A stretch of 64,000 bases of DNA from Escherichia phage vB_EcoM_LNA1: sequence record MZ311863.1. One strand, 5' to 3'. A program made the position numbers and the translations under genes. The notes beneath the pieces were generated by a model that worked only from the letters and a program-made list of their open reading frames with translations, had not been told where the DNA came from and made no database searches. This document shows positions 5,698 through 62,964 of this stretch, one piece after another; position 1 is the first letter of the stretch; each line of letters begins with the position of its first letter.

Positions 5698-6804
5698 ATG
5701 TTGACTAATTCTGAAAAAAGCAGATTTTTCCTTGCTGACCTGACTGGTGAAGTCCAGTCTATCCCAAATACTTATGGGTATATTTCCAACTTAGGTCTGT
5801 TCCGTTCAGCACCAATCACCCAAACTACTTTCCTGATGGACTTGACTGATTGGGATGTTAGCTTGCTTGATGCGGTAGACCGTGATAGCCGTAAAGCAGA
5901 GACTAGCGCACCTGAGCGTGTTCGTCAAATCAGCTTCCCAATGATGTACTTCAAAGAAGTTGAAAGCATTACTCCTGATGAGATTCAGGGTGTACGTCAG
6001 CCAGGAACTGCAAACGAACTGACTACTGAAGCTGTAGTACGTGCTAAGAAGCTGATGAAGATTCGTACCAAGTTCGATATTACTCGTGAGTTCCTGTTTA
6101 TGCAAGCTCTGAAGGGTAAAGTTGTTGATGCTCGCGGTACTCTGTACGCTGACCTGTACAAGCAGTTCGACGTTGAGAAGAAGACTATTTACTTCGACCT
6201 TGACAACCCTAATGCTGACATCGACGCTTCTATCGAAGAACTGCGTATGCACATGGAAGACGAAGCTAAGACTGGCACTGTAATCAACGGTGAAGAAATT
6301 CACGTAGTTGTTGACCGTGTATTCTTCAGCAAACTGACCAAGCATCCTAAGATTCGTGACGCTTATCTTGCACAGCAGACTCCACTGGCTTGGCAACAGA
6401 TTACTGGTTCTCTGAGAACTGGTGGTACTGACGGCGTTCAGGCTCACATGAACACTTTCTACTACGGTGGTGTTAAGTTTGTCCAGTACAACGGTAAGTT
6501 CAAAGACAAGCGTGGTAAGGTTCATACTCTGGTGAGTATTGATAGTGTAGCAGCAACTGTTGGTGTAGGACATGCTTTCCCTAACGTTTCTATGCTGGGT
6601 GAAGCAAACAACATCTTCGAAGTGGCATATGGCCCATGTCCTAAGATGGGTTATGCGAATACACTTGGTCAGGAACTATACGTATTCGAATACGAAAAAG
6701 ACCGTGACGAAGGTATCGACTTTGAAGCTCACTCTTACATGCTGCCATACTGTACTCGTCCTCAGTTGCTGGTAGATGTTCGTTCTGACGCTAAACCAAA
6801 CTAA
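5698..6804 (+). CDS. major capsid protein (putative)
   Basis: 368-aa ORF after protease and decoration genes; codon usage typical of highly expressed genes (ctg, cgt, gct, aaa rich); strong SD. Confidence 0.65.
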   Translation: MLTNSEKSRFFLADLTGEVQSIPNTYGYISNLGLFRSAPITQTTFLMDLTDWDVSLLDAVDRDSRKAETSAPERVRQISFPMMYFKEVESITPDEIQGVRQPGTANELTTEAVVRAKKLMKIRTKFDITREFLFMQALKGKVVDARGTLYADLYKQFDVEKKTIYFDLDNPNADIDASIEELRMHMEDEAKTGTVINGEEIHVVVDRVFFSKLTKHPKIRDAYLAQQTPLAWQQITGSLRTGGTDGVQAHMNTFYYGGVKFVQYNGKFKDKRGKVHTLVSIDSVAATVGVGHAFPNVSMLGEANNIFEVAYGPCPKMGYANTLGQELYVFEYEKDRDEGIDFEAHSYMLPYCTRPQLLVDVRSDAKPN

Positions 6805-29474: not shown

Positions 29475-30026
29475 TCAACTTAGTTTTGCAAACTCTCCGT
29501 GGAGTTTAATAGCAGCTTCACAGTAAGCTTTATGGGCTTCTTCAGGGGTGTCAAACATACCAAGATGATAGTTTTTACCTTGTAAACGTATCATTGCTCG
29601 AAACCTTTTACTTATCTTCTGTACACCTTTTGGCAACCCAGATGGGGACTCTCTTGACCGATTGCAAGAGTTTTGTGAAGCTGTACAAACCCTTAAATTC
29701 AAGTACCTGTTGTCCCAACCGTCCCCATTCTTATGGTCAACCTGTAAGGTTTTATCAGGTAGATATCCATCCATATACAAGATAACTAAACGATTTGCTT
29801 GGTAACCCCTTCCATCAATCAGCAACTGAACTGACTTGTGTCCATCAGTATTTGTTCTGTAGTTTCCAGCCCTCTTACCTCCAAATCTAGAGTTAAAGTT
29901 TGCATTACCTTCTCTAAACTTCCAAGTAAAGACCCCTGTTTCGGGGTCGTAGTCCAATAGCTCCTTAAGACGAATTTCTGTAATCATTTCAACACCATCA
30001 ATGTACCTCATACCAGCTCTTACCAA
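29475..30026 (-). CDS. HNH homing endonuclease with AP2-like DNA-binding domain (free-standing)
   Basis: HNH motif LQVDHKNGDGWDNRYLNLRVCTASQN; C-terminal AP2-like GKNYHLGMFDTPEEAHKAY; start overlaps the 3' end of DNA polymerase exon 2. Confidence 0.7.
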   Translation of the reverse strand: MVRAGMRYIDGVEMITEIRLKELLDYDPETGVFTWKFREGNANFNSRFGGKRAGNYRTNTDGHKSVQLLIDGRGYQANRLVILYMDGYLPDKTLQVDHKNGDGWDNRYLNLRVCTASQNSCNRSRESPSGLPKGVQKISKRFRAMIRLQGKNYHLGMFDTPEEAHKAYCEAAIKLHGEFAKLS

Positions 30027-30554
30027 CCTTTGCTGTACCAGTTACAAGTGTTTCTTTCCTCAAACCTAAGTTTTTTGAAGCTTGTCCATACATCCAGTCA
30101 GCAATTGCTTTCATATCCTGTGTCATACCCTCTGGACATTCCCAACTATTTTCATCGTGATATGCCAGAAGTAACCTTGCTCCGATAGCTGGTTTTCGAG
30201 CATTCAGTTTTGTCAGGCCATCTTCACAGGCTTTTCTTGCTGCTAGGTTGATGGCCTCATTCTGAATCTGTGCTTCCGAACTCATCAGGAGGTAGTTCAG
30301 GAGTTTATGTGGAGATTTGCACCATATCCATGCTCCAGCGACCCTGATATAACCACCTTTAGCAATTGAAGAATTCTTCCCAAAAACCTCTTCCAGAGCC
30401 TTTTTAGACGCCTTAAAATCGGCTTCTAAGCTGTCAAGTAACTTCTTAATCTTCGGTAGACGCATATAGTAAGTCTGCTTAGTCAATGCACCTTCTTCTG
30501 TAGATGATGCCTTGATAGTTTTTGCAAACTTCTCATCACCTGCACCGAACAATA
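29998..30554 (-). CDS. DNA polymerase (family A), exon 2
   Basis: Encodes remainder of motif B (LFGAGDEK) and motif C (LAYHDE); reading frame opens just after a stop; joins exon 1 in frame when intron 30555..30822 is removed. Confidence 0.75.
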
Positions 30555-30822
30555 CATCTGGTCAATACACTCGCAAGGTGTACCAGTTCTCTTATGAACT
30601 TCTCCGCATTTCTACGGAGTGTCGGACTATATCACGTAGTAGTAATACTACCGTTGCACTTGGGAATGGTCATTAGCTTACCACCCTACTCTACTCAGTT
30701 CATACATTAAGTATGCTTTTCGATAGTCTCTGAACGTTCCTCTCAAGAGGCTTCGCTGCTGATTACCGTATCTTCTCAGACTTAGGCTTCCAGCAATTCA
30801 CAACGTTTTACATGCGCCACTG
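30555..30822 (-). ncRNA. group I self-splicing intron (ORF-less, 268 nt) in DNA polymerase gene
   Basis: Exon 1 ends in U; P1 pairs exon ATGCGU with intron GCGCAT (U.G at splice site); P/Q/R/S-like elements AATTGCTGGAA, AATCAGCAGCG, GTTCAGAGACTATCG, GATATAGTCC; terminal G before exon 2. Confidence 0.7.
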
Positions 30823-32965
30823 ACGCATAAATGCCATTTTTGGCTTTCTTACGACCTTTTGTAATCTCGTGAAGAAGTTCCTCGTCCTGTGTCCCCCTAC
30901 AACGAACAATATCTTCTTCCTTGTTCAGACCAAAGTAAATACTGTTCAGTGTGTGTGCATCAGTACCTGTGTAGACTTCGTAGAGGTCATTCTCAGCATC
31001 ATAACGAAGATACTTATCAGTTTCTGGATTGAGGTACTTATCAAGATGCTTGCAATAGTATCTCCCATCATCTTGCTTAGTAAATTCTACAAACTCTTTA
31101 CCTTCAGTTACCGCTTTGGTGAAGTCTTTATCACCCATAAAGTTACACAGTAAAACAAGCTGTGCAGAGTTCTGGTCAACAGAAACAATGTTAGTACCCT
31201 CTTCACAAATCCACACTTCCCTCATAGGTGCTCCATAGACAGCAGCACCAGATGGTACGTTTACAATACCATATTGTGTCATACGTCCAGTTGAAGTACC
31301 AAATACCATTGCACCAGCACTAAGGCGACCATCGGGACGAATCTGGTTCAACCAACCTTTTTCATCATCCTTTGAGTTCTCAATAGTTCTGCGTCGGTGC
31401 ATCAAAGTATAGTACTTAGCAATCTTCTGTCCAAGCTCACCTTCAATCGTATCATAAGATGATTCAGTAAGCTTTGGTGAAGTACGGATTAAGCAAGGCT
31501 CAAGCAAATCTGTGTATTTCTTCACAGACCAGTTATGCTCAATGTACTGTACACCTTCATGTTCAACATAGCTCAAACCACACCGCTCAACCATTTCCTG
31601 CCACTTAGGATGTTTTGTAATCATCTTTTTATTGTCTTTGAAACGACAAACTTTGACAGGGCGACCATCTGAGTCTTTCTTGTAGTTCCAGTCATCTGGA
31701 ATCCAACCAACTGATTTCAAGTAATCTTTAACAACTGCTACCTGAGTCATACGAGAAACTTCGAACTCAATTGGTGTATAAGGTGCATCAATCAAACCTG
31801 TGTAGCGACTTGACTCAAGCTCAAAGTGATTAACAACATGGCTGTTATAGTACTTCACAGTTTTAACTGTTTTTACTGGCTTCCAGTCTTTGCATTTCTT
31901 ACCAATCTTTGCATTCAACTCATTACAAATTGCACGAGCATCCTTCATTGCTACAAAACCTTCCTTGTACTCTTCACCAGTTACAGAGTTGGTTGGTGTA
32001 TAGCAATTTCTCTTTTCAATGTTAAAAATCTTTGTAGTTGGCTTACCAAATGGTTTGATTTCATAAGTCTGCATCTCACCATTACGTACCTGCTGACGAT
32101 ACTTTGTCTTAGGATACTTGGTAATTCTCTTCAGTCCATCTGCATGACCAAATGTTTCAACATACTCATTCCAAGCTTTTGCAAACTCTTCTCCAGTGAC
32201 TTTACCTTTAGTCTTAATAGTTGGAGGAAGATGTGGTTCAACTTCTGAAGCAAGCTCATTAGTCAACTTGTCAAGTTCCTTTACATGGAACTCCATAAGC
32301 TCTTTATCAGCTTTCCAACCATTGATAGCCTGTTGACTCATCCAGAAAGATGTTTCTTTAGCTCGCATGTAGGTTTCATAAGTATCTACGCCACACTTCT
32401 TTAGCTTGAGATATTCATTATCCAGTGCGCGTTTAGTTTTGGCGTTAATACGGATATCTTCCACAACACGAGTGAAGATTTCTGCATTCCACACACCCCA
32501 ATGTTCAATCTCTGGTTTACGTACACCAACACGAGCACCCCATGCAGCCAAGCCATGAGCACCTTTATAACCTTTTGGAGTTGGTCTATCCATCCACTGA
32601 ACACGGGACTGGATAAGAGAATCCTGAAAGAAATTACTCCACGGTTTACACTTTGGATTATCAAAGTTCCATAAATCCGGTGCAATGTGATTGAAAACCC
32701 ACCAGTCATAACCGAGACCGTTATGGATACAAAGACGTTTTGCCTTTAACGCAAACTCAACACCTTCACGTAAGCCACCCTTAATGTACTTAGTGTACTT
32801 GTGACCGAGGATAGGCTCATCTGTAAAGACCCATACAGGTGGCTCTTCATCGTCAGATTTATAGTCTGCAAAGGCCATTACGTGAACTTTAGTGAACTCA
32901 AGGAGTAAACCATCAGTTTCTGTATCACCAACCAAATGTAAGTTTTTAAAATCTACGTTTTCCAT
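30823..32965 (-). CDS. DNA polymerase (family A, T7 gp5-like), exon 1
   Basis: 3'-5' exonuclease motif DTETDG near N-terminus; motif B start RKKAKNGIYA interrupted; the ORF-track stop at 30782 lies inside the intron. Confidence 0.8.
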
Positions 32966-46160: not shown

Positions 46161-47357
46161 ATGAACAAAGTACAGATTATTAAAAAGAATGGCTCACTTG
46201 AAGAACCTGATATCAAAAAAGTTTTAGCAGCAGTCACTAAGTCAGCTAATAGGGTTGGGTATAAAGAACTACCACCAGATGTTACCCAAGCTCTTGAGTC
46301 AGCATTTATGAGGATTCTGGTAAAATCCACTAAGCAGAATAATTTACTCATTTCAGTAAATGATATTCACAGTATTGTTGAGGGTGCTTTGGCAGAAGTC
46401 AATCACGAGATTTATGAGTCTTACTCAACATATAGAAATTACCGTAAAGAAGTTGCTCAAAATTGGGATGAACTCTACCAGAAGACCAAAGATACACTCT
46501 TCTTAGGTGACAGAGAGAATGCTAACTTTGACAGCAGTTTAATTTCTACAAAAGGCTCAATTATTCGTGGTTACCTGACTAAAGAAATCTTTAAACAGTA
46601 CCATTTAACACCAGAGGAACTTGAAGCCATTGAAAAAGGGTTTATCTATATCCATGATTTAAGAGACCTGATTTTTGGTGGTATCAACTGTTGCCTGTTT
46701 GACATTGGCAAAGTGCTGAAAGGTGGCTTTGAAATGTCTGGCATTGAATACTGTGAACCGAAGTCTGTACTGTCAGCCTTACAGGTTATTGGTGATGTAG
46801 TTCTTTCAGCAACTGCACAGCAATTTGGTGGCTTTACTTTAGCAGAGATTGATAAGGTACTTGTACCGTATGCTAAAAAATCTTTAGTGTACCACTCAGA
46901 GAAAGCTGAAGAGTACGGAATCCCTAAAGAGCAACACTATAATTACGTAATGGAGCAATTACAGAATGAGTTAACACAAGGTTTCCAATCTCTTGAAATG
47001 AAACTTAACACTGTTCCTTGCAGTCGCGGTGATTTTGCATTTACTACTCTGACATTTGGTCTGTTGGAACCAGATATGCACAATGAAGATAACCGTCTTC
47101 AGTTTATGATTGCCAATACAATCCTTAACGTAAGGATGAACGGGCAAGGAAAAAGCAAAAAACCTGTTGTGTTCCCTAAACTTGTTTATATCTATGAAGA
47201 AACGAGACATAAGCTTGATGTATGCCAAGCAAGGTTGTTTGAAAAAGCTATTGAGTGTTGCTCTAAAGCGATGTATCCAGATTTCTTAAGTGTGTCTGGT
47301 CATGGTGCTGTAGCAGAGGCTTTTGAGCGTTCTGGTAAGGTAATTTCACCGATGGGT
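46161..47357 (+). CDS. nrdD: anaerobic ribonucleotide reductase (class III), exon 1
   Basis: ATP-cone at N-terminus; ends ...ISPMG immediately before intron; the in-frame TAA at 47358 is intronic. Confidence 0.75.
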
Positions 47358-48099
47358 TAACAAGCTCTATAGCTCATCTAAAACGTGCCTAAACAGGGAA
47401 ACTCTACAGATGTAGATAATCCTGTGCTAAATGATGTAAGATGTAAGAAACTATATAACATAGGAGTATTACATGCCAAATTATCATGTTACTGAAGACG
47501 GAAGAGTCTTTAGAGAAAATGGTGTAGAGCTTACACAGTGGAAATCCAACACTGGGTATATGAAAGTAAAGTTTTACGGTAAGAAGAATCGTGACATGTA
47601 TGTCCATAGGTTAGTTGCTGAGAAATATGTACCTAACCCAAACAATCTTCCAATTGTAAAACACAAAGATGATAACAAACTGAACAACCATGCTTCTAAC
47701 TTAGAATGGGGAACTCATTCTGAGAATGTTAAAGAAGGTTATGAGAACGGTTGCTACAAGTTTTGTAAGCGTTCATATGCTGTGAAGGCTACACACAAAG
47801 TGACAAAAGAAGTTATTGCTGCCAAGTCAATACGAGAGTTATCCAACATACTCGGATATAATCGCAAGACTATCTCTTCAATATTGAAGGGTGTAAAAGA
47901 GCATAATAACTTTGAACATGAATTTGAATACATCTAAATGCCGAACGACTAACCGTGATGAATGTAGCGGTGTAGGGTCAAGCGACTCGAAATGGTACGC
48001 TACTTAGAAATAAGTAGAAGATATAGTCTGGACTTACTGGTGACAGTAAGCAGCTTGGATAAAGCGGGGTAAGCGTAGCGAACTTACCTGAACAACAAG
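47358..48099 (+). ncRNA. group I intron in nrdD carrying an HNH endonuclease ORF
   Basis: Exon 1 ends in U, intron ends in G; P/Q-like CAGGGAAA (47394) and AATCCTG (47418); R/S-like TCAAGCGACTC (47978) and GAAGATATAGTCTGG (48018); P8-like hairpin with GTGA loop; removal fuses PMG-CRAFL in frame. Confidence 0.6.
47473..47937 (+). CDS. intron-encoded HNH homing endonuclease
   Basis: HNH motif HKDDNKLNNHASNLEWGTHSEN; 154 aa; lies in the loop between the Q-like and R-like intron elements. Confidence 0.7.
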   Translation: MPNYHVTEDGRVFRENGVELTQWKSNTGYMKVKFYGKKNRDMYVHRLVAEKYVPNPNNLPIVKHKDDNKLNNHASNLEWGTHSENVKEGYENGCYKFCKRSYAVKATHKVTKEVIAAKSIRELSNILGYNRKTISSILKGVKEHNNFEHEFEYI

Positions 48100-49047
48100 T
48101 GTAGAGCGTTTTTATCACCATACCATAACGAAGATGGTGAAGAGTTTTATGTAGGTCGTGCTAACATTGGTGCTGTATCTTTGAACTTACCAATGATTTA
48201 CCAGTATTCTAAAGAGAATGGCTTAGATTTCTGGAAAGAGCTTGATAAGTACCTAGAAATGATTCGCAGCTTCCACAAGAAACGTTACGAAATGATTGCT
48301 AATATGCCAGCAAGTTCTAACCCTCTTGCATTCACACAAGGTGGCCTGTACAAAGGGAATAAGAAACCTACTGACAAGGTTGGCTGGGATATCGTGAAGT
48401 CCTTCACAGCTTCTTTTGGGGTTACTGCGCTTGATGAGCTATCTGTTCTTGCTGAAGGTAAACGACTTCATGAAGTTGGAAGCTGTAGTTTTGCATATGA
48501 TGTTCTGGAATATATCAACATGAAGACTGAAGAGTTTAAAAATGAAGATGGCTTCTTATATGCAGTCTATGGCACTCCAGCAGAATCACTTTGTGGAACT
48601 CAGCTAAAACAGTTCAGAGATATGTTTGGCGTTATCAAAGGCGTTTCTGACAAGGAATACTTTACAAACAGTTTCCATATGAATGTTGCAGCAGACATTA
48701 CACCATTTGAGAAGCAGGACTTAGAAGAACCTTTCTTCCATATCTGTAGAGGCGGCAGAATCCAGTATGTAAGAGTGGCTAATCCAGAAAACTTATCAGC
48801 ACTTAAGAGTTGTATTACAAGAGGGATGTTGAAAGGTTTCTATCAGGGACTTAACTTTGACTTAGCAATCTGTGAACATTGTGGTAACAGACCAAAGGCT
48901 GATGTTGAAGAATGTGATGTTTGCCATTCACATGATATTTCTGTGATTAACAGGGTGTGCGGATATCTGGGATGGACTAAGATTAAAGGTGAATCCCGAA
49001 TGAACGATGCAAAAATCGCTGAGATTCGTGACAGAATTTCTATGTAA
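48100..49047 (+). CDS. nrdD: anaerobic ribonucleotide reductase (class III), exon 2
   Basis: Begins CRAFLSPY...; contains glycyl-radical motif RVCGYLG near C-terminus; frame opens 8 codons upstream after a TAG. Confidence 0.75.
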   Translation, partial: CRAFLSPYHNEDGEEFYVGRANIGAVSLNLPMIYQYSKENGLDFWKELDKYLEMIRSFHKKRYEMIANMPASSNPLAFTQGGLYKGNKKPTDKVGWDIVKSFTASFGVTALDELSVLAEGKRLHEVGSCSFAYDVLEYINMKTEEFKNEDGFLYAVYGTPAESLCGTQLKQFRDMFGVIKGVSDKEYFTNSFHMNVAADITPFEKQDLEEPFFHICRGGRIQYVRVANPENLSALKSCITRGMLKGFYQGLNFDLAICEHCGNRPKADVEECDVCHSHDISVINRVCGYLGWTKIKGESRMNDAKIAEIRDRISM

Positions 49048-51398: not shown

Positions 51399-51719
51399 AT
51401 GAGCAAAGTTTATAACACTCGCAAATTACAGATTTTCGTACTGTGTCAGTTTATGGCTAAAGAATATAATTTCTACTATTGTGGCACAGGTTTCATTAGC
51501 GATGATGATGGCTCATACCTACCATTTAAAGAAGCTGTGAAGCTCTTTAATGAAGAGAAAAACTCTAAGAAAGATATTGAAAAGGTTAAGCTAACCTACA
51601 GCAAGAAAGATAAGAAGATTATCTGCCTAGATAACTTTGTAAAAGTTACTGGAGAAGCAAAAGAGTTTATGGATGAGAGTGAGATTTCATTCACAAGCAT
51701 CTTGAAAGTAGCTCAGTAA
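51399..51719 (+). CDS. hypothetical protein
   Basis: 106-aa ORF. Confidence 0.3.
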   Translation: MSKVYNTRKLQIFVLCQFMAKEYNFYYCGTGFISDDDGSYLPFKEAVKLFNEEKNSKKDIEKVKLTYSKKDKKIICLDNFVKVTGEAKEFMDESEISFTSILKVAQ

Positions 51720-51770
51720 ACAGATACTATAAGGGGACTGTAAAGGTTCCCTTTTTATTTTGGAGATAAA

Positions 51771-52286
51771 ATGTATCTGTCAAACCTGAAACGTTCGGCT
51801 GCAATGTCAGTTCTAAGACTCAGCTTTGAGGAACGTCAAGAGTTCATTGACTCCCACCAATACGACCCTTCTAACTCGAATCACATGGTTCTTTGGAATC
51901 GTGATAGTACTCGTGAAAGAGCACTATTCCGCTACTACCCACATTACACCGTAGACAACCTGTATGAATGTTTTGTTGTGAAGAACACCATTACAGTACT
52001 CAATAAACTTTGCAGATACACAGGTAGTCAATCCTTCACATTAGGACATCACAAACCTGTTACAAAGGGTGGTGAGCATCACTGTGCAAACTGGTTTATC
52101 CAGACTAGACTCGATAACCAGAGGCAAGGTGATAGTCTTTTAAGTACCCCTAAGATGTCCTATGAAGAGCAAGAGAAATATATCAAAAATAATATGCCAG
52201 ATGTGCTTGACAACAACTATACAGATTTGGCAATATCTCTCCTGTTGAAGTTCGAGACAGTTTATAGGGCAACTTATAATGGCTAA
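51771..52286 (+). CDS. hypothetical protein with HNH-like motif
   Basis: LGHHKPVTKGGEHHCANWFIQTRLDNQ resembles an HNH nuclease core; weak. Confidence 0.3.
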   Translation: MYLSNLKRSAAMSVLRLSFEERQEFIDSHQYDPSNSNHMVLWNRDSTRERALFRYYPHYTVDNLYECFVVKNTITVLNKLCRYTGSQSFTLGHHKPVTKGGEHHCANWFIQTRLDNQRQGDSLLSTPKMSYEEQEKYIKNNMPDVLDNNYTDLAISLLLKFETVYRATYNG

Positions 52287-52557
52287 AGAGAAGTGGGAGA
52301 TTTTACCATTAGTCAGTGAAGGCGGTAATGGTTGTGAAATGTACATGATACGTGGTCATGTTCCAGAACCAATTGCACTTGAGATGGTAAACAACTTTAC
52401 AGATGGCTCTTACAAAGACTTAGGGGAGCCAAATATAAAGCAGCAATGGGTAAAGCCTGTACCAGACAGCACAGGTAACTGTAGTGTACTTTATCACGTT
52501 GTAGACCCTGCAAAATGCAAATCTGCAATGGCAGTAACAAACGTAACTTTTGATTGA
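52279..52557 (+). CDS. hypothetical protein
   Basis: 92-aa ORF. Confidence 0.3.
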   Translation: MAKEKWEILPLVSEGGNGCEMYMIRGHVPEPIALEMVNNFTDGSYKDLGEPNIKQQWVKPVPDSTGNCSVLYHVVDPAKCKSAMAVTNVTFD

Positions 52558-52568
52558 GAGAGAAAACT

Positions 52569-53450
52569 ATGAAAACTGTTATTGAAGCCGTCGTCACCGC
52601 TCAAGAGAAATTCTTCCACACAGAAAAATTTAATATCATTCAATTCCCATCTGGAGAAATTGGTGGAAACTTCTCTGAAGATTTTGTTAAGTTTACTGAG
52701 CGTAATGCTGGTAAGATTGATAATGTTATAATTACTGTACAGGGATATGACAAAGATACACTGTTTGCATTAGCTTTGGCTAAGGATGCCGTTGACAGTC
52801 TTGTTCCCCAGAAATCAGCGATGAAAACCGTTGTTTTCGGGTTCTTACCAAATGCTCGATATGACCGCCACATGTTCAAAGGTGATGCAGCAGCACTGAA
52901 AGTCTTTGCCAACCTAGTTAATGCAATGGGTTTTGATGCAGTATGTGCTCTTGACCCTCACAGTAATGTTGCAGAAAACTTATTTAAGTGCTTTCAAAGC
53001 ATGAAGCAAAAAGATGTGGCAGTACACTTTGCAAGTGACCCACGCATTGATTTCTTGGTAGCCCCAGATGCAGGTGCAGCTAAGAAGACTGAAGATACCG
53101 CTAAAGAGGTGGATAAACCGTATATCACAATGTCTAAGGTGCGCAATCTTAAGACTGGAGAAATCACTGGTATGCGAATCCTTGACGATGTTGATTTGAC
53201 CGATAAAACTGTCATGATTCTTGATGATATCTGTGATGGTGGTCGAACCTTCGTAGAGGCAGCTAAACACCTACGTGAAGCAGGTGCAAAACGTGTGGAA
53301 CTCTATGTAACTCATGGTATTTTCTCTAAAGGTGTTGAAAACTTGCTTGACAACGGTATTGACCATATCTACACTACAAACACTTTAGGTGAAGCTAAAG
53401 ACCGTGGCTTAACACATTACGCCCAAGTTACTGTAGCAACCATTGATTGA
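52569..53450 (+). CDS. PRPP synthetase-family enzyme; candidate ADPR-pyrophosphate synthetase (Adps) of NARP1
   Basis: Prs-like motifs NARYDRH and PRPP-binding loop VMILDDICDGGRTF; ATG at 52569 (track start is TTG 52554); adjacent to NAMPT-like gene, no NMNAT nearby. Confidence 0.6.
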   Translation: MKTVIEAVVTAQEKFFHTEKFNIIQFPSGEIGGNFSEDFVKFTERNAGKIDNVIITVQGYDKDTLFALALAKDAVDSLVPQKSAMKTVVFGFLPNARYDRHMFKGDAAALKVFANLVNAMGFDAVCALDPHSNVAENLFKCFQSMKQKDVAVHFASDPRIDFLVAPDAGAAKKTEDTAKEVDKPYITMSKVRNLKTGEITGMRILDDVDLTDKTVMILDDICDGGRTFVEAAKHLREAGAKRVELYVTHGIFSKGVENLLDNGIDHIYTTNTLGEAKDRGLTHYAQVTVATID

Positions 53451-53459
53451 AACTTTATA

Positions 53460-53480
53460 GGGGCTTGAAAGCCCCATTTT
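53460..53480 (+). terminator. rho-independent terminator
   Basis: GGGGCT-TGAA-AGCCCC hairpin then ATTTT. Confidence 0.55.
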
Positions 53481-53495
53481 GAGAGAGATTAAAAG

Positions 53496-55277
53496 ATGAC
53501 TAAATCGCTTTACGCAGTACCAGCAGGTTTAAACGCAGATGCTTACAAATCTGGTCATGTTTACCAGTACCCTAGTGCAACAGAATACTTGATGTTCAAC
53601 CTGACACCACGTAGTGACAAATGGTTTAACAGCCCCTTAGCAATTGATGGTGTAGTAGCTTTTGGTATTCAACGTTTCGTTAAAGATTACCTGATAGACC
53701 ACTGGAACGCCACTTTCTTTGAACGTGATAAAAAAGAAGCAGTTGACGAAATCTTAGAAGTCATGAATGGTGTTCTGGGTAAAGATGCTATCGGTCGAGA
53801 GCATTGGGAAGCACTTCACGATTTAGGCTATCTACCAGTTGAAGTATACGCTGTAGAAGAAGGTACAGTTGTTCCTATGCGTGTTCCAATGATTGTCTTC
53901 CAGAACACTGTTTCAGGTTTCCATTGGGTAGCAGGTTATCTGGAAGATGCTTTCTCTGCTGAGATTTGGAAGACTTGCACCATTGCAACTATTGCATTGC
54001 ACTACAAACGTATCTGTAAGAAGTGGGCTGACCTTACTTGCGACAATGACTTACATTTACCTTATCAGTGCCATGACTTTGCTATGCGTGGTATGTCCGG
54101 CTTTACCGATGACGCATTTAATGCTGTAGGTCACTTAACCAGCTTTAAAGGAACTGATAGCTTCCCTGCTGTATACACGGCTAAACGCATCTATGGACAG
54201 TCTTACCCAATTTCTGATATTGGTAGTTCTGTACCAGCCACTGAACACTCTGTAATGTGTGCAAACATTGCTTGGGAAGGTGGTAATGAATTGATTGAAG
54301 AGGAAAGACGCTTTAAAGGTGAGTTGCAAACCTTCCGTCGTTTCTTAACAGAAACTTACCCAACTGGTATTGCAAGTATTGTTTCAGATACTTATAACTT
54401 CTGGAGAACTGTGTCAGAAATCTTACCAGCACTTCGTAAAGAAATTATGGAACGTGATGGTAAGCTGGTAATTCGCCCTGACTCTGGAGACCCTGTACAT
54501 ATTGTCACAGGCTATAAAGCAATCCACTTAGAGTGTGCTAAGAAGACTTATTATGAGCACCTAAGCAAGCTGGAAGCTAGTGACACAATGTTGAATGCTG
54601 TTCTGAACATGAAGCTTGAAAACATCAACTATGGTATTGCTGGATGGCTACTGTCAGAAGGCTACGAAATGGTTGTTGACAGAGAAGACTTTGAAGTTGC
54701 TGATACAGTGATGTTGAAAAATGCTTATATGGTTGGCTCTGCAAACGTTGTAACACGTCCTGTAGCAGAGATTGATGGAGCTATTAAGACCCTGTACAAC
54801 ATCTTCGGAGGGACTATTAACTCTAAAGGGTTTAAGGTACTGGATGAGCACATCGGCCTTATCTATGGTGACTCTATCACGCTGGAACGTGCAAACGAAA
54901 TCCTGAAGCGTCTGTATGAAATGGGTTTTGCAAGCTCTAACGTAGTGTTTGGTGTAGGCTCTTACACTTACCAGTACATGACTCGTGACACCTTTGCATT
55001 TGCTGTCAAAGCAACTCTTGCAAGCATTGGTGGTAAAGAGATTATGCTTGCAAAAGACCCTAAAACAGATAGTGGTGTTAAGAAATCTGCCTTTGGTGGT
55101 GTAGCACCTATGTGGGATGGTGATAAGCTGAAAGCTGTAGATGGCTATGGATTCCAGAGTTTTGCAGATGTACTTGACCACCAAGCTTGTGCTTTACGTT
55201 TAGTCTTTAGCGACTCTGAGCAGTTCGGTTATACAACTCTTGGAGATATTCGAAATAATATTGACAAGCAGCTTTAA
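53496..55277 (+). CDS. NAMPT-family phosphoribosyltransferase; candidate nicotinamide ADPR transferase (Namat) of NARP1
   Basis: NAMPT-like motifs ADAYKSGHVYQYP, FAMRGMSGF, LVIRPDSGDP, IYGDSI; 593 aa (longer than typical NadV). Confidence 0.6.
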   Translation: MTKSLYAVPAGLNADAYKSGHVYQYPSATEYLMFNLTPRSDKWFNSPLAIDGVVAFGIQRFVKDYLIDHWNATFFERDKKEAVDEILEVMNGVLGKDAIGREHWEALHDLGYLPVEVYAVEEGTVVPMRVPMIVFQNTVSGFHWVAGYLEDAFSAEIWKTCTIATIALHYKRICKKWADLTCDNDLHLPYQCHDFAMRGMSGFTDDAFNAVGHLTSFKGTDSFPAVYTAKRIYGQSYPISDIGSSVPATEHSVMCANIAWEGGNELIEEERRFKGELQTFRRFLTETYPTGIASIVSDTYNFWRTVSEILPALRKEIMERDGKLVIRPDSGDPVHIVTGYKAIHLECAKKTYYEHLSKLEASDTMLNAVLNMKLENINYGIAGWLLSEGYEMVVDREDFEVADTVMLKNAYMVGSANVVTRPVAEIDGAIKTLYNIFGGTINSKGFKVLDEHIGLIYGDSITLERANEILKRLYEMGFASSNVVFGVGSYTYQYMTRDTFAFAVKATLASIGGKEIMLAKDPKTDSGVKKSAFGGVAPMWDGDKLKAVDGYGFQSFADVLDHQACALRLVFSDSEQFGYTTLGDIRNNIDKQL

Positions 55278-55292
55278 AAGTATATGATAAGA

Positions 55293-55313
55293 GGCTCCTA
55301 CGGGAGCCTTTTT
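55293..55313 (+). terminator. rho-independent terminator
   Basis: GGCTCC-TACG-GGAGCC hairpin then TTTTT. Confidence 0.65.
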
Positions 55314-55330
55314 AATTTCTGGAGAAGATT

Positions 55331-55666
55331 ATGAAAATCAAAGAAATGAACATTAACGTTGTCCTAGAAGAACGTTGGGAGAACATTAAGAAACCTGAAG
55401 ATGGTAAAAAGTTCCTTAACAAAATTTTAGTAGCAGCTAAAGAAGAACTGACTGGCAAGATTGCAGCAGCAATCACAATAAAAATCTGTGTAAAAGGTCT
55501 TCCACAACATCACCAATTTGCACTTGACGAGTTTAAAGAAAGCTTCTACAATCCAAACAAACAGATGCTTGAAAGTAACTTTGCAGTGTCTACAAGTATC
55601 GTCCATGACAGAAGCTTTATCCTTTACAAGAATATGAGAGGTGAGTCATGCAAGCATATTGGATAG
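55331..55666 (+). CDS. hypothetical protein
   Basis: 111-aa ORF. Confidence 0.3.
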   Translation: MKIKEMNINVVLEERWENIKKPEDGKKFLNKILVAAKEELTGKIAAAITIKICVKGLPQHHQFALDEFKESFYNPNKQMLESNFAVSTSIVHDRSFILYKNMRGESCKHIG

Positions 55667-55824
55667 AAATTTTACTGTCACTTGGTAGTGTAGCAGTATT
55701 TGTTTACCTTCTTTGCAAGTACTATGCAGAGCACAAGAAGTGTGATTACTGCAACGGGGAAGGGTACACAAGAGCAGGTTGTTGCCCTATTTGTGGTGGT
55801 TCTGGTAAAATGTTTAATAAGTAA
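55648..55824 (+). CDS. small membrane-anchored zinc-finger protein (58 aa, below ORF-track cutoff)
   Basis: ATG 55648 with AGGTGA SD; hand translation shows N-terminal TM segment then two CxxCxGxG repeats (CDYCNGEG, CPICGGSG). Confidence 0.35.
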   Translation: MQAYWIEILLSLGSVAVFVYLLCKYYAEHKKCDYCNGEGYTRAGCCPICGGSGKMFNK

Positions 55825-55852
55825 TTTAACAGTAAACTAAGAGGAAAGTATT

Positions 55853-58219
55853 ATGCGCATGGTAAATGACCACGCAGAAGTGATTAAGAGTTCAACTTCT
55901 TTAGAGACGTCTCAAGCACAGATTACAATGACACCTGAGATGTTCAGCCTTTTGAGTTCAGGTGTATACACATTCAAAGAAAGGGCAGTGATTCGTGAAC
56001 TGTCATGTAACGCAGTAGATGCTCAAAAAGAAGCTGGAAAAGAGAACATCCCATTCCATGTGCATTTACCTACTCGATTTGAGCCTTACTTTGAAGTCCG
56101 TGACTTTGGAACTGGTTTAACCCATGATAAAGTAATGAGTTTGTATCTGAACTATGGGGCTTCTACGAAGAATGACTCCAATGATTACATTGGTGCAATG
56201 GGTATCGGCTCAAAATCCCCATTTGCAATTGCTCAGTCATTCACAGTATCTAGCTATGTTGATGGTGTTGTTAATAAGTACTCTGTTTACCTTGAGAATG
56301 GTATCCCTCAAGTAACTAAGCTTACTACCAACCCAACAAATGAACCCAATGGTTTAGCTGTACGTGTGGCAGTTGCTGACCATCGTATTTCAAAGTTCTT
56401 TGAAGAGGCTGGTCACGTATACTCATACTTTGCTGTAAAACCAGAAAGTAACATTGTATATGATGATGTATTAGCAGATATGAATGTCATTGCCCGTGAA
56501 GAGGGTGTTTATGATGCTATGATTCATAAGCAAAGCTGGCGTTCTAGTGGCAACAGGACAGAGTTTAATGTGGTGATGGGTAATATTGCCTACCCAGTGA
56601 ACATGGAAGCATTACTTGGTGATGATTTCTTCAAAGTCTTGCCAGAGTTTTTCCGTAGGAGCGTAGACCTTGTAAACATCTACATGCCTATTGGTTCAGT
56701 TGCTATTGCAGCTTCTCGTGAAGCATTGCAGATGAATGACACGACAAAAAATGTTATCATTGAGGCTACTAAAAAGATAACTGAAGCCATTACAAAGGAT
56801 GTTATCAAGAAAGTTAATAGCCAACCTACACTCATGGATGCTGCACAGGCCTATGCTGAGTTACGTTTGAACTCACGAGAGATGTTTAATGCTGTGTGTC
56901 CAAAGCTAGAGTGGGGTGGCGTTAAGCTTGATTCTCTGGAAGAAGAATTGCTAAACATTCGTCGTGGAATTATCTACGCAGAAGACGGCTCAGTCATTTA
57001 CGAACGTGACGGTAAAGGTAATATTAAGGTTGATAGGAACGGGAACAATATCCCTAAAGTAGATTATCTTTATGACCCAGTTGCTTATGTCAAGTTTAAC
57101 TCTTTAGAGAGTAAGATTCGTGCAACAGCACTATCCTACACTCAAGAGGCGAGCATGTTCAACATCTTTGGTGCAATGCGCAAAAGCCAGATTGGACAGT
57201 TTTTGTTCGTGATTAATGACCGCCGAAATAAAAATGGCACTGAGAAGACTGTTGGGCGTAACCAAATCTTGCGTGGTGCATGTCGAGACTATGCAAGTGA
57301 GTCTAGTCTGTTTCACAGATACAATGGTATTGTCTTTGTATTCTCGACTGAAAAAGAGTTAGATGACTTAATCAATCTGCACAAACTTGATAAAAGCTTG
57401 CTAAAGATTGTGAAAATGTCTGATAAGGAACACCATTACCAGCGTAAAGAAGCTGTAAGAGGTGTTGTAAAACTCTGGAAAGCTGTTCCAGCAGAAGGTG
57501 TAGCCTCCTACAAAGAGGTGTCAGAGGACTTAGACACAATTGAAGAACCTCAGCTTTACATTAAGGCAATTGGTGACACAGTTGATGGCGAATGTTTTTG
57601 CTCATCTCCAGAAGATGTAGCTAAGTCAGTTGCCAATGTCATTGAAAAGACAGTCTATGTTTTCCGAAAAGCAAATTGGAAAAAGATACCAGAAGACTGG
57701 ATTGAAGTAGATGAGAAGCTCTTGAGCAACAGCTTAACTAATGTTCACTGGATTAATCATAACAGGTATATGACACGTATCTATATGAATGGTGTCCTAG
57801 ACCTGACAAGCAGTTGGATTATTGCCAGAAACTTTACGTTCAATAACAGGAAGATTTCTCGTGGCTATTGCTATTCACGGGATACAAACAAAACTATCTT
57901 CCTAGAAGGTAATGAAGAGGCTGTAGAGGCAATGTTTGGTAAAATCCAGTATGTTGCTGCACCATTTGCATACACTTACACTATTAGTGTGTTGAAAACT
58001 TTGAAAGATTGTCTTGACAACGATACAAAGCTTTACAAGAAAATTAAGAAAGCTGGTGACCGTATGGTTATTAAGGTGACAAACTACCTTTCAAAAAGAA
58101 AACAAGAAAACTTCTTGCTTTCCCATTTAGATTGGAATAAAGTGTCACCCATCGAAGTGAGTAAGTTCTTAGGTTTTGATGTGAAGTGTGTTCCAGAAGG
58201 AACTACAGTTTACGATTAA
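55853..58219 (+). CDS. rIIA: rIIA-like protein (GHKL ATPase N-terminal domain)
   Basis: 788 aa; N-terminal Bergerat/GHKL-like motifs (ELSCNAVDA, VRDFGTGL, GIGSKS); followed by rIIB-like gene. Confidence 0.55.
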   Translation: MRMVNDHAEVIKSSTSLETSQAQITMTPEMFSLLSSGVYTFKERAVIRELSCNAVDAQKEAGKENIPFHVHLPTRFEPYFEVRDFGTGLTHDKVMSLYLNYGASTKNDSNDYIGAMGIGSKSPFAIAQSFTVSSYVDGVVNKYSVYLENGIPQVTKLTTNPTNEPNGLAVRVAVADHRISKFFEEAGHVYSYFAVKPESNIVYDDVLADMNVIAREEGVYDAMIHKQSWRSSGNRTEFNVVMGNIAYPVNMEALLGDDFFKVLPEFFRRSVDLVNIYMPIGSVAIAASREALQMNDTTKNVIIEATKKITEAITKDVIKKVNSQPTLMDAAQAYAELRLNSREMFNAVCPKLEWGGVKLDSLEEELLNIRRGIIYAEDGSVIYERDGKGNIKVDRNGNNIPKVDYLYDPVAYVKFNSLESKIRATALSYTQEASMFNIFGAMRKSQIGQFLFVINDRRNKNGTEKTVGRNQILRGACRDYASESSLFHRYNGIVFVFSTEKELDDLINLHKLDKSLLKIVKMSDKEHHYQRKEAVRGVVKLWKAVPAEGVASYKEVSEDLDTIEEPQLYIKAIGDTVDGECFCSSPEDVAKSVANVIEKTVYVFRKANWKKIPEDWIEVDEKLLSNSLTNVHWINHNRYMTRIYMNGVLDLTSSWIIARNFTFNNRKISRGYCYSRDTNKTIFLEGNEEAVEAMFGKIQYVAAPFAYTYTISVLKTLKDCLDNDTKLYKKIKKAGDRMVIKVTNYLSKRKQENFLLSHLDWNKVSPIEVSKFLGFDVKCVPEGTTVYD

Positions 58220-61255: not shown

Positions 61256-62140
61256 ATGAAACCAATGTTTAAGTATCTTGGTGGTAAAACAAGAATACTG
61301 AAAGAATATGAGCGTTTAGGTGTCTTTCCAGACAAATGTGAAAACTTCTATGACCTGTTTTCAGGTGGTGGTTCAGTAGCTATTTGGGCTTATAACAGAT
61401 ACCCAGAGGCAAAAGTGTTTATTAATGAGATAAATAAACATATTATAGGTCTTTACACAACTTTCAGAGATGACTATGAAAACTTCATGGAAGAATTTGA
61501 GTACCTGTCAAAAAGGTACTTAGCCTTACCTATGCAGGAAGAGTATGCCGTGAAAGGCCAGCGTCATAACCGTCTACGCTATAAAATGTATTACAGTGTA
61601 AGAGAGGAACTTCTTTTGCTTGGTGAAGAAGGAGCATATGACTACAGGTACTATGCCAGACAGTTTTTCCTTCAAAAACTAAGTTTTGGTGGTGTATGGC
61701 AGACTACTAAAGAGATGAAAGGTCACTATGCAACACCTTGCGGGTATTTGCTGGAAGAAGAGATTTTCTTCACAAAAACTAAGAAGTCACTGTCTGAGTT
61801 CTACAGTTTTATCACTGATGAGAGGGTGATACTTAGCAGTGAACCTTATAACAGGGTTGACATAAAACATGGAGAAGGCACAGTTATCTACTGTGACCCC
61901 CCGTATATCAACACCAACCAGAAATATGGTGCAAAGTTTGACATTGAGATGTCTGTAAAATTATGCGAAGATATGATTTCTTGGGGGGAGTTAGGCTCTA
62001 AAGTTTTGATGTCAAACTCTCAGTGGGATGGATGGGCAAACCTAATTCCTGAAAATTTTAACTTGACAGAGGTTAGCCATTCATACACAATACATGCACA
62101 GAGAAGCAAAGATATTAACGAAGTAATTATTCACAACTAA
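61256..62140 (+). CDS. dam: DNA adenine methyltransferase (Dam family)
   Basis: N-terminal YLGGK, AdoMet motif DLFSGGGSVA, catalytic DPPY; 294 aa. Confidence 0.8.
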   Translation: MKPMFKYLGGKTRILKEYERLGVFPDKCENFYDLFSGGGSVAIWAYNRYPEAKVFINEINKHIIGLYTTFRDDYENFMEEFEYLSKRYLALPMQEEYAVKGQRHNRLRYKMYYSVREELLLLGEEGAYDYRYYARQFFLQKLSFGGVWQTTKEMKGHYATPCGYLLEEEIFFTKTKKSLSEFYSFITDERVILSSEPYNRVDIKHGEGTVIYCDPPYINTNQKYGAKFDIEMSVKLCEDMISWGELGSKVLMSNSQWDGWANLIPENFNLTEVSHSYTIHAQRSKDINEVIIHN

Positions 62141-62151
62141 GGTATCAAGTT

Positions 62152-62964
62152 ATGGCAAACAGCATCAATGTAGCACTGAATGGCAAGGTTGTTAAAATTC
62201 ACACTAAGATTATCAGTGTCGAGGATTTTCTTAATGAAAAACGTTACAAAGAAAACCCTCGTCAACGAAATACACTTAAGCGTCTGAAAAGCAAACACCT
62301 TAATGGTGACGTATCACCAGACCAAACAGTAGTCCATGTGGCTAAGTTCGGGAGTTCACTGTTCATCATTGATGGGCACTCACGTAGAGAGGCATGGAAA
62401 GTTGGTAACCTGACACGACCAGAAAACTTGATTGCAGTTATATACCATGTGAACTCTATATTGGATGTCACAGATTTGTATACACATTTTGACTCTGAGT
62501 TAGCAAGAGAGAAGCCTTCAGAAGTTTATTACGGAAATATGAAGATGATTTCTTTCAACCCAGAGTCAGAACTGATGAAAGCATCTTGGGCAACTGCTAT
62601 TAAATATGTTGCTGCATACTACGGTGTACAACAGGTCTCTAACACTGAAACAGTTAAATATCTTAATGACTTTAAAAATGAGCTGGAACAAATTGATTCT
62701 CTTGAAGTACAGCTTAAAGGTGTAGTAAACGCAAAACGGAAATATTCTTCTGGGATTCGTGCAGCAATGTTAATTACACTACGCCTATATGGTGATGCTG
62801 CATTTTCCTTTTGGGAAGACTATAATGATTACTGTGAAGGTATGTCTAACAAATATGTTACAGAGGTATACCAACTGGCATTACAAGCTGGTCGCGGAGC
62901 ACAGGCTGATAAGTTGTTGATGAATCAAGCGATTTCACTTGTCAACTATTACAGTCAAGAATAA
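62152..62964 (+). CDS. ParB-like nuclease domain protein
   Basis: FIIDGHSRREAW resembles the ParB/sulfiredoxin DGxHR motif; 270 aa. Confidence 0.4.
   Translation: MANSINVALNGKVVKIHTKIISVEDFLNEKRYKENPRQRNTLKRLKSKHLNGDVSPDQTVVHVAKFGSSLFIIDGHSRREAWKVGNLTRPENLIAVIYHVNSILDVTDLYTHFDSELAREKPSEVYYGNMKMISFNPESELMKASWATAIKYVAAYYGVQQVSNTETVKYLNDFKNELEQIDSLEVQLKGVVNAKRKYSSGIRAAMLITLRLYGDAAFSFWEDYNDYCEGMSNKYVTEVYQLALQAGRGAQADKLLMNQAISLVNYYSQE

Follow-up and report, generated by a model that had tools for sequence, protein, structure and literature searches.

The NARP1 system was discovered in the genes bas63_0079 and bas63_0080 of phage JohannRWettstein (Bas63), where the adps-namat pair was handled as one two-gene operon and was tested by deletion (Osterman et al., bioRxiv 10.1101/2024.02.11.579819). 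On SIR2-HerA cells, deletion of the Bas63 operon reduced plaque numbers ~20-fold and deepened the depletion of NAD+, the rescue of NAD+ against SIR2-HerA being partial, and ADPR-PP was detected by mass spectrometry only when the wild-type phage was combined with the defence system (10.1101/2024.02.11.579819). The use of a double-mutant host showed the effect to be independent of host pncC and nadR. The Bas63 Adps purified poorly in the same study, and the two reactions of the pathway, ADPR + ATP to ADPR-PP and then ADPR-PP + nicotinamide to NAD+, were demonstrated in vitro with homologues from the Bacillus phage SpbetaL1, in enzyme assays that included the K162A and R306G mutants (Osterman et al.). 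The SpbetaL1 Adps and Namat have been characterised both biochemically and structurally (PDB 9w5w and 9w5x; Lan et al., NAR 2026, PMC12774641), and the SpbetaL1 Namat was found to keep some ability to form NMN from nicotinamide and PRPP in vitro.

Several related systems are known. NARP2 of Vibrio phage KVP40 (Nampt/NadV plus Nmnat) likewise restores NAD+ against NAD+-depleting defences through an enzyme of the Nampt family, but in that case PRPP is the substrate, NMN is formed, a phage NMNAT is needed and there is no Adps. The same Adps/Namat core is extended in NARP1-AP of Vibrio phage Gary, which encodes Adps, the Macro-domain phosphatase Adpp and Namat, and in the RyDEP-containing NARP1 of phage DyoEdafos. 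Plain NARP1 does not overcome aRES (Osterman et al. 2026). The cellular enzymes Prs and Nampt/NadV share folds and catalytic motifs with Adps and Namat; however, ADPR takes the place of ribose-5-phosphate, and ADPR-PP that of PRPP, as substrates of the phage enzymes.

The locus studied here lies in a 64,000-nucleotide stretch (the window) of the genome of Escherichia phage vB_EcoM_LNA1, a Felixounavirus. Its two genes are adjoining and co-directional in the list of open reading frames, with 45 nt between them (Table 1). The initial annotation had described an adjacent, co-directional pair of Prs-like and NAMPT-like genes, and this description was borne out by the position of both ORFs on the + strand and by their Pfam and PHROGs families; every motif that it had quoted was located in the translations. 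The first protein matched Pribosyltran and Pribosyl_synth in Pfam and phrog_619 in PHROGs (E 2e-99), and the second matched NAPRTase and NAMPT_N and phrog_448 (E 3e-202). Comparison with Bas63 gave 291/293 identical residues for the first protein (gp79) and 585/593 for the second (gp80).

Table 1. Features of the adps-namat locus (window coordinates)
Feature	Position	Strand	Remark
Ribosome-binding site GAGAGAG	52556-52562	+	6 nt upstream of adps ATG; read from sequence
adps, ADP-ribose pyrophosphate synthetase (Prs family), 293 aa	52569..53450	+	orthologue of bas63_0079
Intergenic hairpin GGGGCU-UGAA-AGCCCC, then AUUUUG	53460..53475	+	between adps and namat
Second GAGAGAG, same heptamer	53481-53487	+	precedes namat ATG
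namat, nicotinamide ADP-ribose transferase (Nampt family), 593 aa	53496..55277	+	orthologue of bas63_0080
Start of selectivity-clamp loop (SCL), S40-D41-K42-W43	53613..53624	+	K42 aligns with SpbetaL1 R40
ATEHSVM, with H251	54237..54257	+	H251 aligns with SpbetaL1 H245 (9w5x alignment)
Catalytic-core strand IRPDSGDP	54471..54494	+	R327 = SpbetaL1 R306, D329 = D308
Lineage-specific insertion subdomain, 86 aa (aa 342-427)	54519..54776	+	small alpha/beta fold
Selectivity-clamp helix (SCH) GSYTYQYMTRD, aa 488-498	54957..54989	+	Y490, Y494 = adenine-stacking aromatics
Intrinsic-terminator-like hairpin, 10-bp stem then UUUUUAAUUU	about 55289..55312	+	ends operon; terminator scan

The resemblance to Bas63 extends beyond the proteins. 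Both phages are of the same genus, and the pair sits at the same genomic site, flanked by the NrdG block and rIIA, with the same gene order, intergenic hairpin and ribosome-binding site, in a syntenic neighbourhood of 96.8-98.6% identical DNA. The 10 amino-acid substitutions that separate the two proteins from those of Bas63 include none at mapped catalytic, NAD+-contact or selectivity residues (0/10). Bas63 differs in having an extra 345-nt ORF, bas63_0081, just downstream of namat, which is absent from the window and from phage Andreotti.

The start of adps had been placed at TTG 52554, which is the first start codon only in a mechanical sense and which overlaps the preceding stop codon. The gene almost certainly starts at ATG 52569 instead, because of the position of the GAGAGAG heptamer and because the same ATG is annotated in Bas63 and Andreotti. 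It had also been proposed that each gene is followed by its own hairpin terminator. Both hairpins were confirmed, each folding more stably than shuffled sequence, but only the second is of terminator grade. The downstream hairpin (-17.2 kcal/mol, z -3.05) was picked up by the terminator scan and is followed by a proper U-tract, while the intergenic segment (-12.6 kcal/mol, z -2.9), which is invariant in Bas63 and Andreotti, fails the U-tract rule of that scan and would at most terminate weakly or partially, or stabilise the RNA. Two independent transcription units were therefore rejected; more probably the two genes form one operon, with an attenuating or stabilising hairpin inside it.

The Prs homologue carries NARYDRH (aa 95-101, numbered from ATG 52569), DPHS (129-132) and ILDDICDGGRTF (217-228), the last containing the ribose-phosphate loop DDICDGGRT (219-227), and its flexible-loop residues K190 and R192 align with K194 and R196 of human PRPS1. 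When it was placed against NCBIfam profiles, as had been suggested, only the subfamily model TIGR01251 was passed (139 vs 113 bits), and the score was far under every Prs equivalog cut-off, the best being NF002095 (114 vs 296 bits). No structure of an Adps was found in the PDB, nor was any motif discriminating Adps from Prs found in the literature searched, and the assignment thus rests on these failed equivalogs together with the identity to the Bas63 Adps, which is itself one of the query sequences defining the Adps clade. By this measure the protein is predicted to belong to the phage Adps clade and not to cellular Prs.

The best PDB sequence matches of the second protein were the crystals of SpbetaL1 Namat, 9w5w and 9w5x (E 1e-128). 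An AF2 model (pLDDT 93.4, pTM 0.91) gave 9w5x as its top fold match, with a TM-score of 0.95 on the target. The motifs DAYKSGH (aa 15-21), HDFAMRGMSGF (193-203), IRPDSGDP (326-333) and IYGDSI (456-461) are present, and residues H251, R327, D329, F195, R198, D221, G458 and D459 map to contact or catalytic residues of the SpbetaL1 enzyme and are invariant in 38 homologues. The position occupied by SpbetaL1 H245 and by H251 here corresponds to human Nampt H247. In reported mutagenesis, R306G/A abolished the activity of SpbetaL1 Namat. All 20 NAD+-contact positions of the SpbetaL1 crystal map to an aligned position in the present Namat, and 15/20 are identical; the exchanges are F392 to Y490, S190 to A196, A362 to S460 and R40 to K42 with W43 (I305 to I326-type neighbours aside). 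Most of the NAD+-contact positions are invariant in the 38 homologues.

Two elements of Namat bear on the choice of substrate. The SCL provides an adenine-stacking residue, either an R in third place or the residue that comes after a K or Y in that place. Where the third residue of the SCL is Lys, it is the next residue that stacks, and Bas63 is the named example of this arrangement (Lan et al., PMC12774641). The SCL sequence of the present protein is identical to that of Bas63, and W43 is accordingly predicted to be its adenine-stacking residue. The SCH fits the Namat consensus GS-X-Phi-X-Phi-X-Phi-TRD of the same authors, its positions 3 and 7 being aromatic; the corresponding region is GSFTYQYNTRD in SpbetaL1, whereas the true Nampts HdNadV (GAQTYQRNTRD) and Xcc (GGALLQKVDRD) are without the aromatics. 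The Namat signature for selecting ADPR-PP over PRPP is intact. The clamp logic, the SCH signature, the catalytic core and the two-enzyme pathway are held in common with SpbetaL1, although the two Namat proteins are only 38-39% identical, SpbetaL1 stacks via R40 in place of K42-W43, and position 3 of its SCH is F where Y is found here.

It had been noted that the NAMPT homologue is about 100 aa longer than typical, and that this could reflect an extra insertion or domain. Alignment with the 491-aa SpbetaL1 Namat crystal sequence supported both points, revealing two insertions that the SpbetaL1 protein lacks, one of ~85 aa that covers aa 342-427 and a shorter one of ~15 aa that covers aa 258-272. 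The longer of these folds confidently in the predicted structure, is present in Bas63 and occurs in relatives of the long form (about 590-610 aa) as distant as 46% identity. It is alignable across relatives at 20-91% identity. It evolves faster than the Namat core, yet it is kept in the long-form phage proteins. No structural homologue of it was found in the PDB, and no discussion of it in the NARP1 literature searched. An origin as an intein or mobile element was rejected, as there are no intein or endonuclease motifs, the boundaries are those of in-frame protein secondary structure, and the segment can be aligned across relatives.

The two-gene locus is best read as the Felixounavirus NARP1 operon, encoding Adps and Namat, with a probability of about 95%. 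The initial annotation had proposed an NMNAT-free NARP1 pair active against NAD+-depleting defences, and this proposal holds, with 99% identity to Bas63 genes 79 and 80 and with the signature residues intact; no sequence feature contradicting it was found. The novelty that the proposal implied does not hold, because a locus 99% identical at the protein level to the discovery operon is an orthologue of the published type example. The system at this locus is already described, and the locus is a near-identical copy of the operon in which NARP1 was first found. During infection, host defences such as SIR2-HerA/Nezha, type I Thoeris, DSR1/2 and SEFIR would cleave NAD+ to ADP-ribose and nicotinamide. 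Adps, using ATP, would then pyrophosphorylate the terminal ribose of ADPR to give ADPR-PP, and Namat would swap the pyrophosphate for nicotinamide, yielding NAD+ directly and with no need for an NMN intermediate or an NMNAT. Namat would in this scheme be a Nampt catalytic core provided with an adenine-binding clamp (W43, Y490, Y494) that chooses ADPR-PP over PRPP. For the Felixounavirus enzymes this chemistry is inferred by analogy with the SpbetaL1 homologues. Namat may also have a minor NMN-forming side reaction, since the SpbetaL1 Namat retains some such activity.

Classical salvage would assign the genes differently, with a phage Prs making PRPP, a phage NadV making NMN and the host NadR/PncC routes completing NAD+. 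The public gene names imply as much, the pair being labelled 'ribose-phosphate pyrophosphokinase' and 'nicotinamide phosphoribosyltransferase' in >250 phage records, and Namat does pass the NCBIfam equivalog 'nicotinate phosphoribosyltransferase' (470 vs 405 bits). The NMN-forming activity of SpbetaL1 Namat points the same way; note, however, that this enzyme prefers ADPR-PP and that the SpbetaL1 Adps homologue yielded no PRPP-synthase product. Against salvage stand also the position of Adps below the Prs equivalogs and the presence in Namat of selectivity aromatics that true Nampts are missing. For the 99%-identical Bas63 operon, salvage is refuted by the finding that the phage still beats SIR2-HerA in the pncC/nadR double-mutant host, and for the present locus it is very improbable.

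It could also be that the pair works together with a further enzyme, either an NMNAT as in NARP2, a Macro-domain ADPR-1''-phosphate phosphatase as in NARP1-AP, or a RyR cADPR glycosidase as in RyDEP, given that accessory genes of such kinds occur in other phages. The statement that no NMNAT is visible in the window was upheld at the Pfam level. Among the Pfam matches listed, none of the 89 window ORFs matched CTP_transf_like/NMNAT, Nudix, Macro or RyR; for the first 44 ORFs, 25 of 34 families were listed, and plausible enzyme-sized ORFs were rescanned individually. Neither Macro nor RyR was found at Pfam E <= 1 in the two genes on each side of the operon or in the third upstream gene (51399..51719). 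An NMNAT elsewhere in the genome had been named as a point to check; none is present in the Bas63 whole-genome annotation and none was detected by Pfam in 20 Bas63 ORFs, most of them past the window end. The locus thus differs from NARP2 in having Adps and a Namat with the ADPR-PP clamp aromatics and no NMNAT match among the 89 window ORFs, and from the NARP1-AP and RyDEP systems in having no Macro- or RyR-domain gene in or adjoining the operon. The only Macro match was bas63_0095, a 'putative phosphatase' (PF01661, 32 bits), which in Bas63 lies about 7.8 kb downstream of NARP1, just past the window end. This gene favours an extended system, but it is outside the operon, its link to NARP1 is putative, and the two-gene deletion in Bas63 produces the phenotype on its own. 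A pair that depends on such a partner is therefore improbable, and the plain two-gene NARP1 is preferred.

Beyond this two-gene reading, one further suggestion is that the 86-aa insertion gives Namat an additional role, for instance in regulation, in binding Adps or a host factor, or in evading a host inhibitor of Namat, and that, separately, the distal Macro protein acts in trans as an ADPR-1''-phosphate phosphatase. Taken jointly, these ideas are speculative and unlikely. If the second were true, the trans-acting Macro protein would confer a NARP1-AP capability that a search of +-2 genes would miss, and the distal gene might matter for resistance to defences of the aRES type.

The recent discovery of NARP1 is an important one, in that phages restore NAD+ from exactly those compounds that NAD+-depleting immunity produces. 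As an orthologue of the discovery operon, the locus described here adds no new biology. Its value is one of annotation, as the labels of those phage records that carry the salvage names should be Adps and Namat.

The two genes that the initial annotation had read as a NARP1 pair, an ADP-ribose pyrophosphate synthetase gene (adps) and a nicotinamide ADP-ribose transferase gene (namat), were both found as described, and all of the motifs quoted from them were present in the translated ORFs. The NARP1 reading was supported by comparison with Escherichia phage JohannRWettstein (Bas63), in whose operon the system was found: Adps was identical to bas63_0079 at 291 of 293 residues, and Namat to bas63_0080 at 585 of 593. 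Judged by sequence, the pair is an already known system, a copy of the NARP1 type example. The NARP1 study of Osterman et al. is reportedly also published in Nature (2024). That study set out from the Bas63 operon (genes 79-80), deletion of which cut plaque numbers on SIR2-HerA cells ~20-fold and deepened NAD+ depletion, while ADPR-PP (m/z 720.010) was seen only with wild-type Bas63 plus the defence system (bioRxiv 10.1101/2024.02.11.579819). The effect was retained when the host was mutated in both pncC and nadR, which rules out an NMN route. According to the same preprint, the in vitro chemistry was established with SpbetaL1 homologues, because the Bas63 protein purified poorly, and NARP1 counters type I Thoeris, DSR1, DSR2, SEFIR and SIR2-HerA, and not type II Thoeris.

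A mechanical ORF call began the first gene at TTG 52554 (298 aa), the start initially annotated; this codon overlaps the stop of the preceding ORF. The start was moved to ATG 52569, because a GAGAGAG Shine-Dalgarno lies 6 nt ahead of it (an identical heptamer precedes the second gene) and because the 882-nt CDS from the equivalent ATG is annotated in both Bas63 and the related Escherichia phage Andreotti. The first product matched Pribosyltran and Pribosyl_synth (Pfam) and phrog_619, and the second NAPRTase and NAMPT_N and phrog_448. Each gene had been credited with its own hairpin terminator, and both 3' hairpins did fold better than shuffled controls; only that after namat (55289-55312), however, has a U-tract and passed the terminator scan. 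The adps-namat hairpin (53460-53475), followed by AUUUUG and kept in relatives, appears to be a weak terminator or a stabilising element inside one operon.

Coordinates of genes and ORFs, and Namat signature and NAD+ contact residues
Feature	Source	Position	Strand	Detail
adps	window	52569..53450	+	293 aa, from ATG
namat	window	53496..55277	+	593 aa
Intron-split polymerase locus ORFs	window	30782..32965, 29998..30552, 29475..30026	-	
bas63_0095	Bas63 MZ501086	63278..64063 (L004:7279-8064)		just past window end, ~7.8 kb downstream of NARP1
Clamp helix	window Namat (Namat)	aa 488-498		GSYTYQYMTRD
Clamp helix	SpbetaL1 Namat (Namat)			GSFTYQYNTRD
Clamp helix	HdNadV (true Nampt)			GAQTYQRNTRD
Clamp helix	Xanthomonas (Xcc) Nampt (true Nampt)			GGALLQKVDRD
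NAD+ contact	window Namat	D15 / Y17		SpbetaL1 D13 / Y15
NAD+ contact	window Namat	F195 / A196 / R198		SpbetaL1 F189 / S190 / R192
NAD+ contact	window Namat	D221		SpbetaL1 D215
NAD+ contact	window Namat	A248		SpbetaL1 A242
NAD+ contact	window Namat	R327 / D329		SpbetaL1 R306 / D308
NAD+ contact	window Namat	G458 / D459 / S460		SpbetaL1 G360 / D361 / A362
NAD+ contact	window Namat	G488 / S489 / Y490 / Y494		SpbetaL1 G390 / S391 / F392 / Y396
NAD+ contact	window Namat	T496 / R497 / D498		SpbetaL1 T398 / R399 / D400

Megablast of 52000-56000 returned 258 phage records, nearly all Felixounavirus and related genera, with Andreotti as the top match (98.6%) and Bas63 also matched (96.8%). Gene order is syntenic with Bas63 (NrdD, NrdG, small ORFs, gene 79, gene 80, small ORFs, rIIA, rIIB), and the remainder of the window is collinear with it, starting at the large terminase. 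Directly 3' of namat, Bas63 has an additional 345-nt ORF, bas63_0081, which the window and Andreotti lack (55278-55330 vs 6279-6681 of comparison stretch L001); its absence from the window explains why the Bas63 match came in two pieces. Upstream, past a terminator-like hairpin (51731-51753), two tightly packed small genes adjoin adps (51771-52557) and may be co-transcribed with NARP1. The product of one (171 aa, phrog_3500) shows a GHHKP...H...N motif and weakly matches an HNH endonuclease; that of the other (92 aa, phrog_4726) has no recognised domain.

Three other loci were observed. A group I intron (RF00028, 30602-30885, minus strand; 61.5 bits, E 4e-13; Rfam) divides the family-A DNA polymerase gene into 727-aa and 184-aa ORFs, with an HNH_3+AP2 homing-endonuclease ORF just downstream; the Bas63 gene is annotated as uninterrupted (2730 nt). 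The stretch 61256-62964, which separates the bas63_0088 homologue from the i-spanin gene, holds a D12-class (Dam-like) N6-adenine methyltransferase ORF (294 aa, PF02086, E 3e-23) together with a 270-aa ORF that has no Pfam match; Bas63 has no counterpart of either, and the segment is therefore a strain-specific insertion. Anaerobic ribonucleotide reductase NrdD (46161-49047) lies in two ORFs (399 and 288 aa, both Pfam NRDD) separated by a 154-aa ORF, with no intron called there by Rfam at gathering threshold; Bas63 NrdD is annotated as a two-piece join.

The catalytic apparatus of Prs is retained in Adps: NARYDR, DPHS, the ribose-phosphate loop DDICDGGRT, and flexible-loop K190/R192, which align with human PRPS1 K194/R196. 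Its score fell far under the cut-off of every NCBIfam Prs equivalog. For Namat, structures of the SpbetaL1 protein with nicotinamide and with NAD+ have been described, together with a two-part selectivity clamp: a helix with the signature GS-X-Phi-X-Phi-X-Phi-TRD, aromatic at positions 3 and 7, and a variable loop giving a stacking residue (Lan et al., NAR 2026; PMC12774641). Loop residues K42-W43 of the window Namat align with SpbetaL1 R40-V41; this is the 'Lys then stacking residue' layout for which Lan et al. give Bas63 as their example. The SpbetaL1 NAD+ contacts were carried over through a HMMER alignment; most mapped positions were invariant among 38 homologues, and none of the substitutions relative to Bas63 (8 in Namat, 2 in Adps) falls at a mapped contact or signature position. 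H251 aligns with SpbetaL1 H245, which is outside the contact list. Chromosomal homologues of ~496 aa from Klebsiella, Cronobacter, Erwinia, Phytobacter and Kosakonia (P0069, P0073, P0083 and others), annotated as nicotinate phosphoribosyltransferase, bear the Namat-type GS[FY]TYQYNTRD, which suggests bacterial Namat and not NadV, in line with Lan et al., who report NARP1 homologues in bacteria.

Alternative pathways would each need a further enzyme: NMNAT for NARP2, the Macro-domain phosphatase Adpp for NARP1-AP, or a RyR-domain glycosidase for a RyDEP-extended operon. Among the Pfam matches listed for the 89 window ORFs there was no NMNAT, bearing out the earlier statement, and likewise no Nudix, Macro or RyR domain; the two genes on each side of the operon also had none of the four. 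NMNAT was absent, too, from the Bas63 annotation and from a scan with Pfam of 20 Bas63 ORFs, mostly past the window end. All three alternatives were rejected since no NMNAT, Macro or RyR partner turned up among the listed matches of the window ORFs or in the operon flanks, which leaves a plain two-gene NARP1. The scan of 20 Bas63 ORFs did give a Macro domain (PF01661, 32.3 bits) in bas63_0095 ('putative phosphatase', 261 aa), which weakly resembles OARD1/TARG1 and coronavirus Mac1. By analogy with Adpp of NARP1-AP, this protein might be a trans-encoded ADPR-1''-P phosphatase. The aRES preprint confined its partner survey to within two genes of NARP1, so a trans-acting Adpp may yet exist in Felixounaviruses.

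The ~100 aa of extra length noted for Namat was traced to two insertions relative to SpbetaL1 Namat, at aa 342-427 and, shorter, at ~aa 258-272. Relatives down to ~46% identity share the long form (about 590-610 aa), among them phiSUSP1, Silverhawkium, Yersinia phage vB_YenM_P778, Pectobacterium phage Arno162 and Salmonella phage SB18; other phage Namats have unrelated insertions at the same site, and the 496-aa bacterial homologues only ~8 residues. Divergence in the aa 342-427 insertion outpaces that of the core (55% identity vs 80% overall in homologue P0029). This insertion is confidently predicted to be a small alpha/beta subdomain, with block-mean pLDDT ~94-97 within the full-length model (overall mean 93.4, pTM 0.91) and 87 when folded alone; the full model best matched Namat crystals (TM 0.95 on target). 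Separately, phrog_16547 matches only aa 1-320 of Namat and phrog_15800 only aa 268-593, half-length families which imply that some phages carry the gene in a split or interrupted form; in several relatives (LinBro, ekra) an HNH endonuclease gene is inserted at some position within the 52000-56000 region. The word 'insertion' is absent from Lan et al. (PMC12774641) and occurs once in Osterman et al. (bioRxiv 10.1101/2024.02.11.579819). Set against these two papers, the insertion subdomain appears to be the one element here that goes beyond existing description, and the leads that remain are this subdomain and the distal Macro-domain gene.
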